Below are positions 29,498 through 35,832 of a stretch of DNA of 64,000 nt, piece by piece; position 1 is the stretch's first letter, and each line of letters opens with the position of its first letter. Source of the stretch: Candidatus Kaiserbacteria bacterium. Lineage in GTDB: Bacteria > Patescibacteriota > Minisyncoccia > Phycocordibacterales > Phycocordibacteraceae. The stretch is taken from NCBI GenBank assembly GCA_016182485.1, contig JACPGH010000003.1, forward strand, positions 6,331-70,330. Direction: 5' to 3'. Made by a program: the position numbers and the translations under genes. Under the pieces are notes generated by a model. It did no database searches. It saw nothing but the letters and a program-made list of their open reading frames with translations, and was not told the origin of the DNA.

Positions 29498-30331
29498 ATG
29501 TCGCGCGGCGAGGTGCGAATAGGGACGTCCGGGTGGATGTACAAAGATTGGGGTAAAGAATTCTATCCGTCCGGGATGAGGGAGGGTTTCCTGACGTATT
29601 TGGCAGGCGAATTCGACACGGTCGAGATAAACAATTCTTTCTACCATCTGCCGCTCATGAAGACCTTTTCGGCATGGAGGGCTCAAACTCCGGAGCATTT
29701 CCTGTTCGCCGTAAAATTATCGCGTTATATCACGCATAGGAATTTGCCGAGCGCGCGGCAGCCGCTTTTCCGCTTTCTCTCGCACGCGAAGCGGCTGGAG
29801 CATAAACTGGGGCCGATTCTGGTCCAACTCCCGCCCTGGAAGAAATTTTCCGAGGAATGGCTCGGCCGTTTCCTAACGGATGTACAGGCGGCTGCGCAGC
29901 GCGCGCGTATTTCTCCGAGATTCGCTCTTGAACCCAGGCACGCGAGCTGGCTTGAGAATATTGAAACCGTTCGCGAACGACTTCGAGAGGTAAACATAGC
30001 GCTCGCCCAGCACCAAACTGGGTTTGGTGCTGGGCTCGTCTTCCCGCATTCCGCAAAGATACCTTCCATTCCGCCGGACGAGGCAAACATAACCGCAGAT
30101 TTCGCCTATGTCCGTTTCCACGGCCCTTCCGAATTCGCCGCTTCCCGCTACGGGGAGAAGCGCTTAAAGCCGTGGGCGGAACGGATCAGCAAATGGCAGG
30201 AAAAGGGGGTTCAGATATTTTGCTATTTCAATAACGACGTGCATGGACATGCCGTCCATGACGCGCGCACGTTAAAGCAGCTTGTAGGCATCAGCGAGCC
30301 TCGCGCGAGAACTCTTTTTCAAGACGGGTAA
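29498..30331 (+). CDS. DUF72 (YecE-like) family protein
   Basis: IGTSGWMYKDW...FYP...VEINNSFY is the DUF72 N-terminal signature. Start at MSRGEV. Confidence 0.8.
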   Translation: MSRGEVRIGTSGWMYKDWGKEFYPSGMREGFLTYLAGEFDTVEINNSFYHLPLMKTFSAWRAQTPEHFLFAVKLSRYITHRNLPSARQPLFRFLSHAKRLEHKLGPILVQLPPWKKFSEEWLGRFLTDVQAAAQRARISPRFALEPRHASWLENIETVRERLREVNIALAQHQTGFGAGLVFPHSAKIPSIPPDEANITADFAYVRFHGPSEFAASRYGEKRLKPWAERISKWQEKGVQIFCYFNNDVHGHAVHDARTLKQLVGISEPRARTLFQDG

Positions 30332-32138
30332 CGGCCTCCTTAAGGTCCACGCTTTGTGCAAGCATCGGCCGCATCAGGTCGCCTTTCTTCTTGAGCCTTT
30401 CCAAAATCGTTTTGATATTGAACTTCTTTGGCTCGAGGCCCTTCTTCACCTCCCGCCACTCTAGTGGCGTGGAAACAGTCGCGCCGGCGAAAGGGCGCAG
30501 AGAGTAGGGAGCCGCGACGGTTTGCCCATAGCGGTTTTGCAGGTAGTCGAGATATATCTTGTCTTTGCGTTTCTTGGGCGAACGCTCGATGCTCGTTATG
30601 TCGGGCAGTTTACGATGCGCCAGCCGCATGATTAGTTCCGCAAAATCTTTCACCGCCTCATAGGGATACCGCCCGCCGAGCGGCACGAGGATATGCAGTC
30701 CTGTTTTGCCGCTCGTTTTGGGGTAGGAGCGCGCGCCGGCTTTCGCAAGTAGGCGGTTGATTTCGCCTGCGACCGCGATCACGTCCTCGAACGGACGTCC
30801 GTTCGGATCGATATCGAATATCATGAAATCCGGCTTCTCGAGATTCCCGACCCGCGAACTCCACGGGTTGATCTCGATACAGCCGAGATTCGCCATGTAG
30901 AGAAGAGTTTCTTTGTTGTTACAGACTAGATACTCGATCTTTTTCCGGTTCGTATCCGACCAGATCTTTACGCTCTGCGCGAAAGGCGGCACCGCGCCCG
31001 ATATGTCTTTCTGGAAAAAACTCTTGCCCTGCCAGCCGTTCGGATGGCGGTTCAGGTTTTCGGGCCGGCCTTTAAGATAAGGCAGGATGGTCTCGGCCAG
31101 GCGGTCGTAATACTCGATAAGGTCGCCTTTGGTGTAGCCTTCTTCCGGCCAAAAAACTTTATCAAGATTGCTGAAGTGCGGGCTTTTTACTTTTTCTGCC
31201 GCCTCATTCCTCGGGAATTCTCGCACCACTTCCTCGGGCTTTTTATCAATGCGAAGGCCGGCGTATACGGGATGGCGCATGTACCCCTCCGGCGTCCATT
31301 CTGAAAACGCGCTTTCGATTACATATTTCGGGTTCACCCAAGTGATCGGGGAGTTGATCGGCACGCGCTCTTTGAGAGGCGCTGTATTCCGGACTGTTTT
31401 CGACAATGTAGCGTGGAGCTCGGCGAGTTCGCGGTCGGTAAAGCCGCCTCCCGAATGGCCGATATACCTGAGCCGCCCGTTCTCGTATGCGCCGAGCACG
31501 AGAGCGCCTAAGTGCTTGCGCGAGCCGCGCGGCTTCGTGAAGCCGATAATGACGGCTTCCTGTGTATTGAGATTCTTTACTTTGAGCCAGTCCCCGCCGC
31601 GAACTCCCTCGCGATAGGGACTTTTCGGATCCTTAGCCACCATGCCCTCGAGCCCGTGCGCGCGCATGAGGTCGAAGAATTTCTTGCCGTGGTTTTCGGC
31701 GTGTTCGCTAAAAAGCAGGTGTGCGTCGTGCGGCAATATCTCGCGCAGGCGCTTCTTGCGCTCGGAGAGCGGCTTCTGGCGCAGGTCCTCTCCGTCAAAA
31801 TAGAGCAAATCGAATACCGCGTATTGGAGTGGGGAGGGCACATGCTCATAGTCTTGCAGCGCGTGAAAGTCCGGTCTGCCATCCTTAAGCGCGATGATTT
31901 CTCCATCGAGCACGCAAGTATGACGGATCTTCTTAAGGGCTCCCGCGATCGGCGCATACCGTTTTGAGAAATCAATGCCGTGGCGCGAGTAGAGCCGTAC
32001 GGAACCGGACTCGATCTCGGCAATGGCGCGGTAGCCGTCCCATTTCGTTTCGAAGTACCAGCCGTCTTTATCGAACGGCTCGCGAACCAGGGTCGCGAGC
32101 ATCGGGCGCACGCGCCGCGGCATTTGCGCGCGCGTCAT
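30291..32138 (-). CDS. ligD: ATP-dependent DNA ligase LigD, ligase + polymerase (PolDom) domains
   Basis: KWDGYR (KxDG) ligase motif in the N-terminal half; LigD primase-polymerase domain in the C-terminal half. Start at MTRAQMP, a 4-nt overlap with the upstream PE ORF. Confidence 0.85.
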   Translation of the reverse strand: MTRAQMPRRVRPMLATLVREPFDKDGWYFETKWDGYRAIAEIESGSVRLYSRHGIDFSKRYAPIAGALKKIRHTCVLDGEIIALKDGRPDFHALQDYEHVPSPLQYAVFDLLYFDGEDLRQKPLSERKKRLREILPHDAHLLFSEHAENHGKKFFDLMRAHGLEGMVAKDPKSPYREGVRGGDWLKVKNLNTQEAVIIGFTKPRGSRKHLGALVLGAYENGRLRYIGHSGGGFTDRELAELHATLSKTVRNTAPLKERVPINSPITWVNPKYVIESAFSEWTPEGYMRHPVYAGLRIDKKPEEVVREFPRNEAAEKVKSPHFSNLDKVFWPEEGYTKGDLIEYYDRLAETILPYLKGRPENLNRHPNGWQGKSFFQKDISGAVPPFAQSVKIWSDTNRKKIEYLVCNNKETLLYMANLGCIEINPWSSRVGNLEKPDFMIFDIDPNGRPFEDVIAVAGEINRLLAKAGARSYPKTSGKTGLHILVPLGGRYPYEAVKDFAELIMRLAHRKLPDITSIERSPKKRKDKIYLDYLQNRYGQTVAAPYSLRPFAGATVSTPLEWREVKKGLEPKKFNIKTILERLKKKGDLMRPMLAQSVDLKEAVTRLEKEFSREAR

Positions 32139-32722
32139 GGCCGCTTCGAGTCGCGCGGGAGCTTCTTGCCGGTCTTCACCGATTTCGTATCTTTTGTGAC
32201 GTCTTTCGCGCTCGCGTATTTGTCCTTTTCTTTGATCAAGAGCCAAGCATTGTCCTTCCCGCCCTTCTGATTTCGGATTTTCACGAGCGCGAAGCCGCCT
32301 TGGAGCTTTTTGCCGAGCAGGACGAATTTAAGCTCTCCTTCGCCGTACCCCTGTCTAAGCTTTTCGCGGCTCTCTTTCGGGTCGGCCGTTTCGCTCGAGG
32401 TATACAGCCCCTCGTCCCAGACTATGACGTCTCCCGCGCCGTACTCTCCCTCCGGAATGACGCCCTCGAAATCTTTGTATGAATACGGGTGGTCCTCGAC
32501 CTCCATCGCGAGCCGCTTGTCGGCCGGATTGAGCGACGGGCCTTTCGGCACGGCCCAGCTCTTCAGTACGCCGTCTAGCTCGAGGCGGAAATCGTAATGC
32601 AGGCGCGAAGCGTCGTGCTTCTGCACGACGAAATGAAGTGCTCCCGTCCGTGAAGCTTTTTGCGGTTTGGGTTCCGGTGTTTTAGAGAATTTGCGTTTCT
32701 TTTTATATTCAGCTAACGGCAT
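32135..32722 (-). CDS. LigD 3'-phosphoesterase (PE) domain protein, separate ORF
   Basis: HYDFRLE and SWAVPKG motifs of the LigD PE domain. Lys-rich C-terminal tail. Confidence 0.8.
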   Translation of the reverse strand: MPLAEYKKKRKFSKTPEPKPQKASRTGALHFVVQKHDASRLHYDFRLELDGVLKSWAVPKGPSLNPADKRLAMEVEDHPYSYKDFEGVIPEGEYGAGDVIVWDEGLYTSSETADPKESREKLRQGYGEGELKFVLLGKKLQGGFALVKIRNQKGGKDNAWLLIKEKDKYASAKDVTKDTKSVKTGKKLPRDSKRP

Positions 32723-32768: not shown

Positions 32769-32842
32769 ATAAAAAGCTAATGAACGCGGTTCCCGTGTTC
32801 AGGGCAGCTATGTACTTTCGTGCTTTCAGAGGAGATGACGCC

Positions 32843-33475
32843 ATGGCGAAAGCTGTGTCCCCATCCGCAGTGAATCCCATTAGCATTGGGCAGGCCGCGA
32901 AGTTCCTCGACCTGCAGATGGCCGCGCTACGCAAGAGCGGCCTGCCGAGCGGACCAACGCAGCAGGTGCTCGAGAGCCAGGGCGCCGCTCTGGCCGACGA
33001 GTTCGTCACATTGGTCCGTAGGCGCGTCGAGGCAATCTCGGATCTAATCGTCCGCGTCGTCGCGAAGGTCGACCGCTCGCGCACGCCGCAGGAGGCACTC
33101 GACGCGACTGGTCGAACGCAGTACGTCGACCGCGGTGTCGCGAAGGCGATGCCGCGTGGCACGGGCGAGGGTGCCAAGACGGAATTTTTCGAGCTCGATC
33201 TCTCGCGGCGCGGCGGATGGATCAGCGACTCTGACCTCGACAAGGAGTACGCGCTCCGTGGCCTCGTCCCCGAGGATCCTTACTCGCTCGCGGCACAGAA
33301 CGAGGCTGATCCGGCCTTCGCCGACGAGCACCCCAACGCCACGCACTGGAAGGATGCGAATGGCAGTTGGTGTTACGCGGCGTTCTTCCTCTGGCGCGAT
33401 GAGCGCTACGTGCGCGTCCACCGCTGCGACAGCGACTGGCTCGACCGCTGGTGGTTCGCCGGTCGCCGCAAGTAG
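32843..33475 (+). CDS. DGR target (variable) protein with C-terminal VR
   Basis: The 3' ~100 nt (VR) pair with the downstream TR and differ almost only at TR adenines. The C-terminus ...LWRDERYVRVHRCDSDWLDRWWFAGRRK corresponds to TR-encoded ...LWNDERNLNVNRNDNDWNDNWWFAGRRN. Start could also be 32780 or 32810. Confidence 0.7.
   Translation: MAKAVSPSAVNPISIGQAAKFLDLQMAALRKSGLPSGPTQQVLESQGAALADEFVTLVRRRVEAISDLIVRVVAKVDRSRTPQEALDATGRTQYVDRGVAKAMPRGTGEGAKTEFFELDLSRRGGWISDSDLDKEYALRGLVPEDPYSLAAQNEADPAFADEHPNATHWKDANGSWCYAAFFLWRDERYVRVHRCDSDWLDRWWFAGRRK
33375..33472 (+). repeat. DGR variable repeat (VR)
   Basis: Aligns with 33792-33889. TR AAC codons correspond to VR TAC, CGC, CAC, TGC, AGC, CTC and CGC. 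There are 11 A-site substitutions and one non-A (C to G) change. An identical GC-rich 3' end ctggtggttcgccggtcgccgcaa (IMH-like) is followed by hairpins at 33480-33580. Confidence 0.8.
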
Positions 33476-33791
33476 TTCTAGGGACTCGATCCTCGGTTCT
33501 TTCAGAACCTTGGGATTGAGTCCTTGCATTCGGGCTCCGCATTGCCTCACGGCGTGCGGAGTCCTTTCGTTTTGATACAATCGATAACGGCGCTAGGCGA
33601 ATACGCGGGCGACCACGCGTCTCCCGCTGCCCGCGATCACGGTTTCGAGTAGCGTGGTGTATGTAGACCTTAAAAATTGAAGATACTTGGTGCGGACCTC
33701 TCTGGCATTATAATGCCGAATCAGATACAGCTCGGAGATCGGCAGAGGCCTTCAATGGGCAGTGGTACGGATGGAGGTCCGCACATTGCGA

Positions 33792-33889
33792 CGTTCAACC
33801 TCTGGAACGATGAGCGCAACCTGAACGTCAACCGCAACGACAACGACTGGAACGACAACTGGTGGTTCGCCGGTCGCCGCAACTCTTCA
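33792..33889 (+). repeat. DGR template repeat (TR)
   Basis: AAC-rich (8 AAC codons in the VR reading frame). The overlapping six-frame ORF 33677-33985 is incidental. Confidence 0.8.
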
Positions 33890-34303
33890 TTCCCCGGCCC
33901 CGCCCTCATGCGGGGCTTGGTTTTGTTTGGTCAATTGACCATTCCAGCCGCCGAGCATTCTGCCGACCTCCTCAAGCGGAATTGAGAGAGCGGCGTATCG
34001 CTTTGTCTCGAACGAATTTGTTTCCCAGAGCACCATAAGCAGCAGCTTGACGGTATCGAGCTTGCGGATGGCGAGCCGCACCCACGGTTGCTTCTCACTG
34101 CGCTGCAGGACTCCCGCGAATCCGGCGGCCTCGATAACGTCGATAAACAATGCATCAATGCGGTTGCCGAGCGTGTAGCGGTGGAGCTTCGGGAGTTTCT
34201 GATATTCGTACCAAAGCAGATATGCCGCCTTTAATTTCTGCAAAACCGGAAGAATCGTCGGGGGGGGGGGTTGCTCATGGAGTCTTGCATACGACAATAT
34301 CAT
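33887..34303 (-). CDS. avd: DGR accessory variability determinant (Avd)
   Basis: C-terminus EVGRMLGGWNGQ and the upstream helices match Bordetella phage bAvd (EVGRILGSWIAR..., LPKLHRYTLGNRID versus IPRKHGVAREMF). 139 aa. Contains a PPPP stretch encoded by the C11 run. Confidence 0.8.
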   Translation of the reverse strand: MILSYARLHEQPPPPTILPVLQKLKAAYLLWYEYQKLPKLHRYTLGNRIDALFIDVIEAAGFAGVLQRSEKQPWVRLAIRKLDTVKLLLMVLWETNSFETKRYAALSIPLEEVGRMLGGWNGQLTKQNQAPHEGGAGE

Positions 34304-34744
34304 TTCCGTCGAAAACCTGCTTGCCGCATGGCAGGAATTCGCGAAAGGGAAGCGCAAGAAAAGCGATGTGCAGGAATTCGGGCGATATTTGATGCAGAAT
34401 ATTTTGGAGCTACACCGCGACCTTGCGGCCGGCACCTTTAAACACGGCGGGTGCGGACGATTTCGTTATCCTTTCCGCTGAACGAACACAGCTGCTCGAG
34501 TCTCTACGATATATCGTAGTATTTCTCCGCGCCCGTCTGAAACTCACATTGCATCCCGATAAAGTCTCTGTCTAGAGAAGCGACGATTGCCTCATATCTA
34601 GGCATGCTTCGCCATGGCAATACGAACAAACTGCAACAAGTTCCACTCAATGCCGCTAGACTGCTTTCTCAAGCTTGCGGATCCTGCGCTCGTGATCGAA
34701 AATCCGATCCCTATCTCTATCGTGAGCGTCGGAAAGAGATGTGA
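34222..34744 (+). pseudogene. DGR reverse transcriptase remnant (N-terminal region only; frameshifted, multiple stops, 3' truncated)
   Basis: Frame-0 translation DNIISVENLLAAWQEFAKGKRKKSDVQEFGRYLMQNILELHRDLAAGTFKHG aligns with the bRT N-terminus (DQITTWENLWDAYRKTSHGKRRTWGYLEFKEYDLANLLALQAELKAGNYERG). RP..TH..A (motif 2) is recognisable further on. The ATG at 34222 is in frame only if the G tract were 12 nt. Stops at 34479, 34519, 34558 and 34742. No YxDD region anywhere downstream. Confidence 0.7.
34260..34270. repeat. G11 (C11) homopolymer tract at the divergent Avd / RT 5' ends
   Basis: cgtcgggggggggggttgc read directly. It lies within the Avd N-terminal codons and immediately upstream of the RT homology. 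Confidence 0.9.
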
Positions 34745-34760
34745 GTTCATCCTGAATGTC

Positions 34761-35006
34761 TTAAATCCTATTCTGAACCTTTCCTAACGTACGCTGCACG
34801 TCTCCGAGACGGACATCTATATTATCCATGCGATCATCCATCGCATTAAATCTCTGAGTTGTTCTTCCCTCGAAATTGTCAACGCGTTTCTCTACGGTAT
34901 CAAATCGCTTATCTACGGTATCAAACCGCTCATTCATTACCGCAAGCACTTCGCCGAGTGTCGGTTCGGGTATAGCAGCTTTTCTTATCCGCTTCATGTC
35001 TGCCAT
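34761..35006 (-). CDS. Small coiled-coil protein downstream of ku, containing a 21-bp tandem duplication
   Basis: MADMKRIRK...FDTVDKRFDTVEKRVDNFEGRTTQRFNAMDDRMDNIDVRLGDVQ. The DNA 34895-34936 is two 21-bp units with 2 mismatches. Confidence 0.45.
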   Translation of the reverse strand: MADMKRIRKAAIPEPTLGEVLAVMNERFDTVDKRFDTVEKRVDNFEGRTTQRFNAMDDRMDNIDVRLGDVQRTLGKVQNRI

Positions 35007-35037
35007 TGTATCACCCTCACCAAACGGATTGCGGGTG

Positions 35038-35832
35038 CTACCGCGTTCCGGAGTGGGCGGGGCGGCGCTCTTGCTCAAGGCTCTTGCGCAGGGCTTCCAT
35101 GAGATTCCGCATATCGGTCGGGACGGGAGCTTCTTCTTCGGATACCTTGATCGGCTTGCCTTTCGCCTTGCGGGCGATAACTTTCTTCAGATCGCCGGTA
35201 TAGGTGTCCTTATATTGGCTCGCGTCGAAATGTTCCTCGAGCTGCTTGATGAATGCGACGGTAAGGTCGAATTCTTTGCTTGAAAATTTAGTAGATTCGG
35301 GGATATGCAGGTCTGTAGGCTTGCGTAATTCCTCTTCGAATCGCAGGCGGATGAGCATGAGCGCCTTGCCCTCGGGCTTGAGCATGGCGATATGCTCGCG
35401 GTCTTTCAGAACGAACGTGCCTATGCCGACCTTTTTAGAACGCGCCAGCGCTTCGCGCAGGAGCACGTACGCTTTCTCGGCGCTCGGATCCGGCTCCAGA
35501 TAATACGGCTTTTCTATGAACCGGCTTTCTACCTCCTCCTCGTTCGCGAAGCTCTGCACGTCGATCGTCTTGGTCTTCTTGGGCGCCGCTTTCTCGAAAT
35601 CCTCATCGGTCAGTATCACATAATCGCCCTTCTGATATTCGTAGCCTTTTACGATATCTTCGGGTTTCACCTCCTCATTCGTCCCGCGACATACCTTGAG
35701 GTAGCTGATGGGGCAGTGCCCATGCTTGTCGAGCAGGCGGAACGAGAGCGCCCGCTCCTCGCTCGCGTTGTAAAGCTTTACGGGTATGGATACTAGGCCG
35801 AAAGTAAGCGCGCCTGACCAGATTGCTCTCAT
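35038..35832 (-). CDS. ku: Ku protein (NHEJ DNA end-binding)
   Basis: MRAIWSGALTFGLVSIPVKLY N-terminus and Ku core. Lys-rich C-terminal tail. 264 aa. Confidence 0.9.
   Translation of the reverse strand: MRAIWSGALTFGLVSIPVKLYNASEERALSFRLLDKHGHCPISYLKVCRGTNEEVKPEDIVKGYEYQKGDYVILTDEDFEKAAPKKTKTIDVQSFANEEEVESRFIEKPYYLEPDPSAEKAYVLLREALARSKKVGIGTFVLKDREHIAMLKPEGKALMLIRLRFEEELRKPTDLHIPESTKFSSKEFDLTVAFIKQLEEHFDASQYKDTYTGDLKKVIARKAKGKPIKVSEEEAPVPTDMRNLMEALRKSLEQERRPAHSGTR

Follow-up and report, generated by a model that had tools for sequence, protein, structure and literature searches.

Simple-sequence contingency loci include poly-G tracts in genes of Campylobacter and Neisseria as well as tetranucleotide repeats in lic1 and mod of Haemophilus influenzae. 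At the hifA/hifB genes of H. influenzae a (TA)n repeat lies in overlapping divergent promoters and acts on transcription through promoter spacing. Mutagenesis itself can also be switched: tandem-repeat changes in mutL or mutS are reversible mutator switches that affect mutation genome-wide. Homopolymers are further involved in programmed slippage or frameshifting, as in the A-run of Thermus dnaX, in transposases of IS elements and in prfB, where one conserved offset is used and the runs usually consist of A/T. In the Bordetella model of DGRs, mutagenic retrohoming requires both Avd and the reverse transcriptase (RT). To our knowledge, little has been described on how DGR activity is regulated and how a cell ceases to mutate a target after obtaining a good variant, and we know of no contingency locus described in CPR bacteria.

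We analysed a DGR in a stretch of 64,000 nucleotides from a Candidatus Kaiserbacteria bacterium, hereafter called the window. As in simple-sequence contingency loci, a non-triplet repeat is located just after a start codon, its length varies in identical strains, the phase is scrambled and the unit sizes of 1, 2, 4 and 7 nt are of the same kinds. Those loci act on surface antigens or methyltransferases, whereas here a DGR accessory protein and, in the subclade of the window, also the RT would be affected, the hosts are Patescibacteria and the system is known from sequence alone. As at hifA/hifB, one repeat between two divergent genes would control both, but it lies inside overlapping coding leaders and would act on the reading frame instead of promoter spacing. 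With Thermus dnaX, IS transposases and prfB it shares a homopolymer linking an upstream start codon with an ORF that follows in a different frame; unlike in these systems all three offsets occur and repeats other than homopolymers can substitute. Repeat-mediated reversible control of mutagenesis and second-order selection on evolvability would be common to the mutL/mutS switches and the repeat described here, which would however gate the mutagenesis of a single target gene and not of the whole genome. Compared with the DGR of Bordetella phage BPP-1 (avd-TR-brt; bRT-Avd complex in PDB 4DWL and 8UB7), the A-mutagenised pair of variable repeat (VR) and template repeat (TR), the four-helix-bundle Avd and, in relatives, the DGR-type RT are alike. 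Differences from BPP-1 are that avd of the window is inverted and overlaps RT head-to-head (architecture B3), that a slippery repeat lies in the avd leader and that RT of the window is a pseudogene.

The components of the locus are listed in Table 1. The TR is located 411 nt downstream of the VR, and the differences between the two repeats fall, with one exception, on TR adenines (A-to-N), as is characteristic of DGRs. No further VR copies were detected within the 64-kb window, and the target ORF showed no match to a Pfam family. Independent contigs of the locus break at the TR/VR repeat. The hairpin and T run behind the TR could end the TR transcript ahead of antisense passage through avd. 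A search for sigma-70-like promoters in 33400-34800 found none, and no Rfam family matched at the avd/RT junction.

Table 1. Features of the DGR locus (positions refer to the window).
Feature	Position	Strand	Basis and remarks
DGR target gene, 231 aa, VR at C-terminus	32780..33475	+	ORF; contains VR
Variable repeat (VR)	33377..33471	+	95-nt direct repeat with TR; mismatches: 16 at TR adenines, 1 elsewhere
Template repeat (TR), AAC-rich	33788..33882	+	Sole VR/TR pair in the window
GC-rich hairpin followed by T run, terminator-like	33896..33917	+	Directly 3' of TR; overlaps avd stop region of the opposite strand
avd ORF, long-leader form, 138 aa, MILSYARLHEQPPPPTILPVLQ...	33887..34303	-	Profile matches, homologues, predicted fold
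RT-direction ATG upstream of the tract	34222..34224	+	Shares the frame of the RT N-terminus at G12 alone; the opposite strand holds the Ala-Tyr codons of avd
G11 (plus strand) / C11 (avd sense), slippage-prone homopolymer	34260..34270	.	Run count; G12 in L005; homologous tract in 121/139 related junctions
Second avd ATG (MSNPPPP... form)	34276..34278	-	In frame with avd core only at G12; protein P0001 from G12 contig
RT fragment 1, residues 1-58 of 328-aa relative	34278..34451	+	tblastn; no in-frame start codon after the tract
RT fragment 2, residues 220-259, ADDFVILS...LHPDKVSV	34453..34572	+	tblastn; different frame; weak RVT_1 match
RT fragment 3, residues 298-316, EATIASYLGMLRHGNTNKL	34577..34633	+	tblastn; third frame

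In the window avd, read from the reverse strand, separates TR from RT. This order, TR-(avd)-RT, corresponds to architecture B3 of Wu et al. 2018 and was found in 90% of the CPR set of that study (PMC5758913). We examined 80 of 417 GTDB relatives, all 80 contigs being derived from Patescibacteria-type MAGs, and nearly all of them carry avd and RT in divergent head-to-head orientation. The original prediction had regarded divergent avd and RT as unusual; in both sets it is the common arrangement. The decayed DGR of the window is flanked by NHEJ genes, namely ligD (30291-32722), consisting of a ligase and primase-polymerase ORF and a separate phosphoesterase-domain ORF, and ku (35038-35832). The two ORFs of ligD are in different frames and share 112 nt. 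Between the RT remnant and ku a coiled-coil ORF (34761-35078, minus strand) contains a 21-nt tandem duplicate with 81% identity (34879-34920). One relative, L006, carries an intact DGR whose RT directly adjoins the same csoR-like and heavy-metal genes as at the window locus, and for this reason the two loci appear to be orthologous; ku is absent there.

The reverse-strand ORF was identified as avd from profiles, homologues and a structural model. Scores of 51.8 bits for NCBIfam NF033474 and 31 bits for Pfam PF22296 (bAvd) were obtained, both under the curated cut-offs; homologues numbered 1252, and PF22296 was present in 120/120 among the matches listed. The AlphaFold model (pLDDT 82.9) shows a four-helix bundle beginning at residue 18 (LPVL), preceded by 17 N-terminal residues predicted to be disordered. 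Foldseek matched the model to 2GSC, 2RLD and the Avd chains of 4DWL and 8UB7 (DGR RNP), with TM values of 0.70/0.86 against 4DWL. Since the leader is predicted to be disordered, alternative Avd leaders are plausible. The NF033474 model starts 3 residues past the PPPP motif of the leader, and an NCBI protein from Candidatus Kaiserbacteria, MBI2409619.1 (P0121, 118 aa), matches residues 22-138 of the window Avd and starts with MQKLK, the start residue corresponding to a TTG codon in the window.

As the original prediction had pointed out, a G11 tract is placed at the start region of avd and RT. A run-length count showed that no other G/C homopolymer of the 64-kb window exceeds 7 nt, the next-longest being one G7 and all others 6 nt or shorter. 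The same G11 was assembled in six further samples (SRR12113424, -20, -22, -85, -83 and -84) and is genuine, not an assembly accident. One sample, SRR12113431, shows G12 and is otherwise identical to the six G11 samples across 1.18 kb. All seven other-sample contigs have a single SNP in common with respect to the window (34111 C>A).

The reading frames across the tract were computed for all three phases. From the ATG at 34303-34301 the minus strand reads ...CAT GAG CAA CCC CCC CCC CCG ACG... (HEQPPPPT), so that avd is in frame through the tract and encodes PPPP as predicted. The ATG at 34222 has an offset of 2 to the RT frame at G11 and of 0 at G12, which agrees with the prediction that it joins RT only with 12 Gs. 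At G11 the long-leader avd alone is in frame and the RT leader is out; at G12 both the RT leader and avd, the latter from its second ATG, are in frame; in the third phase neither is. The slipped-strand switch that had been proposed to toggle avd versus RT is upheld as a putative frame switch common to avd and, in the subclade of the window, the RT leader, with G12 as a natural variant, but not as an alternation between the two genes, because avd stays in frame at G12 from the second ATG. An ATG at -38 to -41 nt from the tract is kept in 9/10 inspected junctions of the window's group, L019 being different, and the RT-direction ATG has offset 0 to the RT frame in L005, L017 and L076. An alternative RT start in this subclade was rejected, as the RT frame contains no ATG, GTG or TTG from the upstream stop (34200-34202) to the conserved N-terminus. 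At 34277 a conserved ATG is present in a different frame from RT; it yields a short non-RT ORF only.

In the window itself, RT has been lost. A tblastn search with the intact 328-aa RT of L006 recovered just three fragments in three frames, with deletions of about 161 and 38 codons; ~60% of the coding sequence is lost. No other RT was found within the 64-kb window, where an intact DGR-type reverse transcriptase is absent, while avd, TR and VR are intact beside the RT remnant (34278-34633). Identical fragments were obtained from the other assemblies of the locus (L001-L003 and L005), which argues for a real pseudogene and against misassembly. Judging by these remains, RT of the window is a pseudogene and the element a decayed DGR. 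The putative tract switch in the window is a relic because RT has lost so much of its coding sequence, and its local biological consequence is small. The predicted toggling of the RT N-terminus is consequently without effect here, and no function can be claimed for it at this locus.

To place the tract in its wider context, 160 loci from among 417 GTDB and more than 564 metagenome relatives were anchored at two points, the avd core (LPVL...) and the N-terminus of RT, yielding 139 unique junctions from Patescibacteria. A run of G6-G13 was found between the anchors in 121 of these (87%), most often as G9 (36 junctions) or G10 (46), and always with G on the RT-sense strand. Relatives with the run share just 54-74% Avd identity with the window. 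The flanking DNA of the same loci served as control and contains only 6 G/C runs of at least 7 nt in 575 kb. Proline codons within the tract are CCC in 83% of cases compared with 19% in the avd core and RT ORFs, which points to selection on DNA beyond the protein; the homopolymer itself is, as far as codon usage tells, conserved at the DNA level and not merely as prolines. Seven junctions carry another repeat at the site of the tract, namely (CT)n, (CTGA)n, (CTGG)n, (GGCGGCT)n or (GATTGCT)n, and the substitutes are 13-78 nt long in genome and metagenome loci. None of the unit lengths at the junctions (1, 2, 4 and 7 nt) is divisible by 3. With similar flanks, L071, L161, L075, L080, L084, L069 and L087 have (CTGG)n, (GGCGGCT)n, (CTGA)n or (GATTGCT)n, or lack the repeat. 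The occurrence of different repeats at one site suggests rapid turnover or repeated origin. The remaining 11 junctions have no repeat or an interrupted one such as CCG CCG CCG, and five distant phage-type avd genes that we examined contain no such repeat. As only 2 close relatives were found among viral contigs, the clade is essentially cellular. A relative on an IMG/VR contig classed as viral, L176, carries (GA)19 directly before the avd core codons LLPLLQ at about nt 640-700.

In most loci RT has its own ATG past the tract, located exactly 13 nt after it in 30/45 typical loci. The avd ATG is antisense to a conserved His codon located at around codon eight of RT, which means that the genes overlap head-to-head and that the tract is part of the avd leader. 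The window's subclade, about 28 junctions recognizable by TCATGGA after the tract, lacks the downstream RT ATG, and its RT frame opens from an ATG upstream of the tract only. Here the tract belongs to both leaders and is read as Pro on the avd strand and as Gly on the RT strand. A role of the poly-G as Shine-Dalgarno sequence of RT was considered and rejected on account of the 13-nt spacing and of separate purine-rich stretches before the ATG. On the avd side, a start-codon scan of the loci revealed no conserved start codon downstream of the tract. At the first Leu of the avd core, TTG is used in 45% of loci only, with synonymous scatter in the others, and the position thus behaves as a synonymous site and not as a start codon. 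When codons from the tract to core codon 8 were scanned, some TTG or GTG was present in 82% of poly-G loci, and avd may be initiated internally at such codons independently of the tract. Many lineages have ATGs in two frames, and once in three, just upstream of the tract; in L148/L146 and clusters, ATGCATGG gives rise to MHGQQST- or MDNSL- leaders. Where ATGs lie in two frames, two of the three phases would still give Avd, with a different leader.

We then compared phase and length of the tract between loci. One or more open ATG leaders upstream of the tract are kept in 121/121 poly-G loci, while the phase is random: 45 of the 121 are in frame compared to 50.0 expected for random length modulo 3, and 63% of junctions are out of frame. 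The conserved avd ATG is distributed 19/31/16 over the three offsets in typical loci, and a tally of the listed distances gives 7:10:11 for the window's subclade, a single conserved offset as in programmed frameshifting or slippage thus being absent. In this subclade about 7 junctions have RT and avd in frame, 6 the long-leader avd only and about 15 neither. Tracts of G6-G8 are not in frame more often than longer ones. By contrast, junctions without a repeat are in frame in 11/11 cases (Fisher p = 4e-5), a control that is weaker than its p-value since only about 6-7 lineages are represented and part of the leader is protected against indels by overlapping RT codons. Loci with avd in the OFF phase are not decaying, as an intact RT ORF of at least 300 codons is about equally common with avd OFF (58/64 loci) and with avd ON (33/37 loci; p = 1).

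Differences in length are also seen between close relatives. Pairs with 100% identical 95-nt flanks differ in the tract only (11/12, 10/11 and 9/10), and near-identical pairs have lengths of 9/8, 11/6 and (CTGG)10/11. Together with G11 and G12 at the window locus, repeat number therefore varies in this pair and in five further pairs of otherwise identical or near-identical strains. Clusters of proteins with 90% identity contain several leader forms, each on multiple contigs, in front of near-identical avd cores. In a Uhrbacteria cluster, for example, we found MHGQQSTPPP (12 contigs), MDNSLPPPP (6), MHGQQSTPPPP (2), MDSYAWTTVYPPPP (1) and forms starting at the core (4 and 1). By these comparisons the tract is the fastest-changing character of the junction, and the genes behind the repeat appear to be under purifying selection.

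These observations form a pattern known from contingency loci: a non-triplet repeat follows the start codon (in the window, G11 separates the avd ATG from the avd core), it is retained even at synonymous positions and replaceable by other non-triplet repeats, its phase is random, its length varies in identical backgrounds and the genes are maintained. We consider it rather probable that the slippage-prone repeat in B3 DGRs of Patescibacteria is such a locus, making avd, and in the window's subclade also RT, phase-variable. A simple-sequence repeat, in our reading a hypermutable one, lies between the start codon of avd and its four-helix core at the head-to-head junction with RT, and it depends on the repeat length whether the core is joined in frame to an ATG on the upstream side. 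Because RT of the window's subclade lacks a start codon beyond the tract, the same length there also sets the RT frame relative to the ATG on the far side. Slipped-strand mispairing at replication would change the length by plus or minus one unit and thereby switch translation of Avd, in the subclade together with RT, reversibly on and off. Length heterogeneity within populations is deduced from differences between assemblies. As Avd and RT are both needed for retrohoming, targeted hypermutation would become a stochastic, heritable ON/OFF trait. The broader proposition, that DGR hypermutation is phase-variable across a large Patescibacteria clade and that the avd-leader repeat, shared with RT in one subclade, gates retrohoming reversibly, is in our estimate evenly balanced.

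Several other explanations of the tract were considered. Slippage could take place at the RNA level, either by RNA polymerase on the G/C run or by ribosomal +1/-1 shifts of tRNA-Pro on CCC-C, so that a small constant share of Avd (and RT) would be made in frame at any DNA length, with selection keeping the run long but not its phase. The random phase across genomes, the intact RT ORFs and the retention of the run at synonymous positions would all fit this mechanism, and long homopolymers are known to promote transcriptional slippage as CCC-C is known to promote +1 shifts. We nevertheless regard it as unlikely, because the 2-, 4- and 7-nt substitutes are classic substrates of DNA slippage and not known sites of RNA slippage or frameshifting, because classic programmed sites use one fixed offset where all three occur here, and because the DNA length demonstrably differs between near-identical genomes. 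Both levels are compatible with each other, and RNA slippage could contribute to DNA slippage or substitute for it. Less probable still is a tolerated mutational hot spot without regulatory role, in which the tract would be a Pro-rich linker or 5' leader, Avd would start downstream at TTG or GTG and frame variation would be neutral. Such a reading draws on the Pro-rich motif that persists without a homopolymer in some lineages (VPPPR, encoded by CCG CCG CCG), on the frequency of TTG and GTG codons early in the core and on the NCBI protein for the window Avd that starts at a TTG-encoded residue. It does not account for the preponderance of CCC in the tract against synonymous scatter elsewhere, for a run kept in most junctions at such low Avd identities, for its replacement by non-triplet repeats that do not encode PPP or for the open ATG leader present in every poly-G locus, and the low share of TTG at the first core Leu also speaks against it.

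The constant distance of 13 nt between the 3' end of the tract and the RT ATG in two thirds of the typical loci, as well as the invariable presence of G on the RT-sense strand, would be expected of a cis-acting nucleic-acid element serving RT or the DGR RNA, such as a 5'-UTR structure, a G-quadruplex, a ribosome-binding element or a promoter spacer, with incidental effects on the avd frame. We think this very improbable: unrelated repeats of 13-78 nt, and (GA)19 in the viral-contig relative, take the place of the tract, 13 nt is too distant for a Shine-Dalgarno sequence and in several loci the ATG is directly preceded by a purine-rich stretch of its own, no Rfam match was obtained, and the fixed spacing is accounted for by the overlap of two reading frames. 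Sequencing or assembly errors in genomes that are truly all in frame are the least credible explanation. Homopolymers of 10 nt or more do raise indel error rates, and a few loci may, by their record names, be long-read assemblies (MFD bins L011, L061 and L062). However, seven G11 assemblies from different samples are concordant, the share of out-of-frame junctions is far beyond any consensus error rate, and tetra- and heptanucleotide repeats behave alike.

Repeat-based phase variation and DGRs are each well known, and their combination is new as far as our literature search reached. The search, with Paul et al. 2017 (CPR DGRs) outside its scope, returned no link of DGR avd or RT to homopolymers, simple-sequence repeats, frameshifts or phase variation. 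For genome annotation it is of consequence that about two thirds of such avd genes look frameshifted or N-terminally truncated in assemblies, as do many RT genes of one subclade, so that pipelines will mis-call or drop them. If avd and RT are indeed phase-variable, lineages could diversify the target protein and then lock in a useful variant, which would provide a simple heritable way to stop mutating the target once a good variant has arisen. The repeat would then represent a mutable switch placed over a mutagenesis machine, and second-order selection would act on a targeted mutator.
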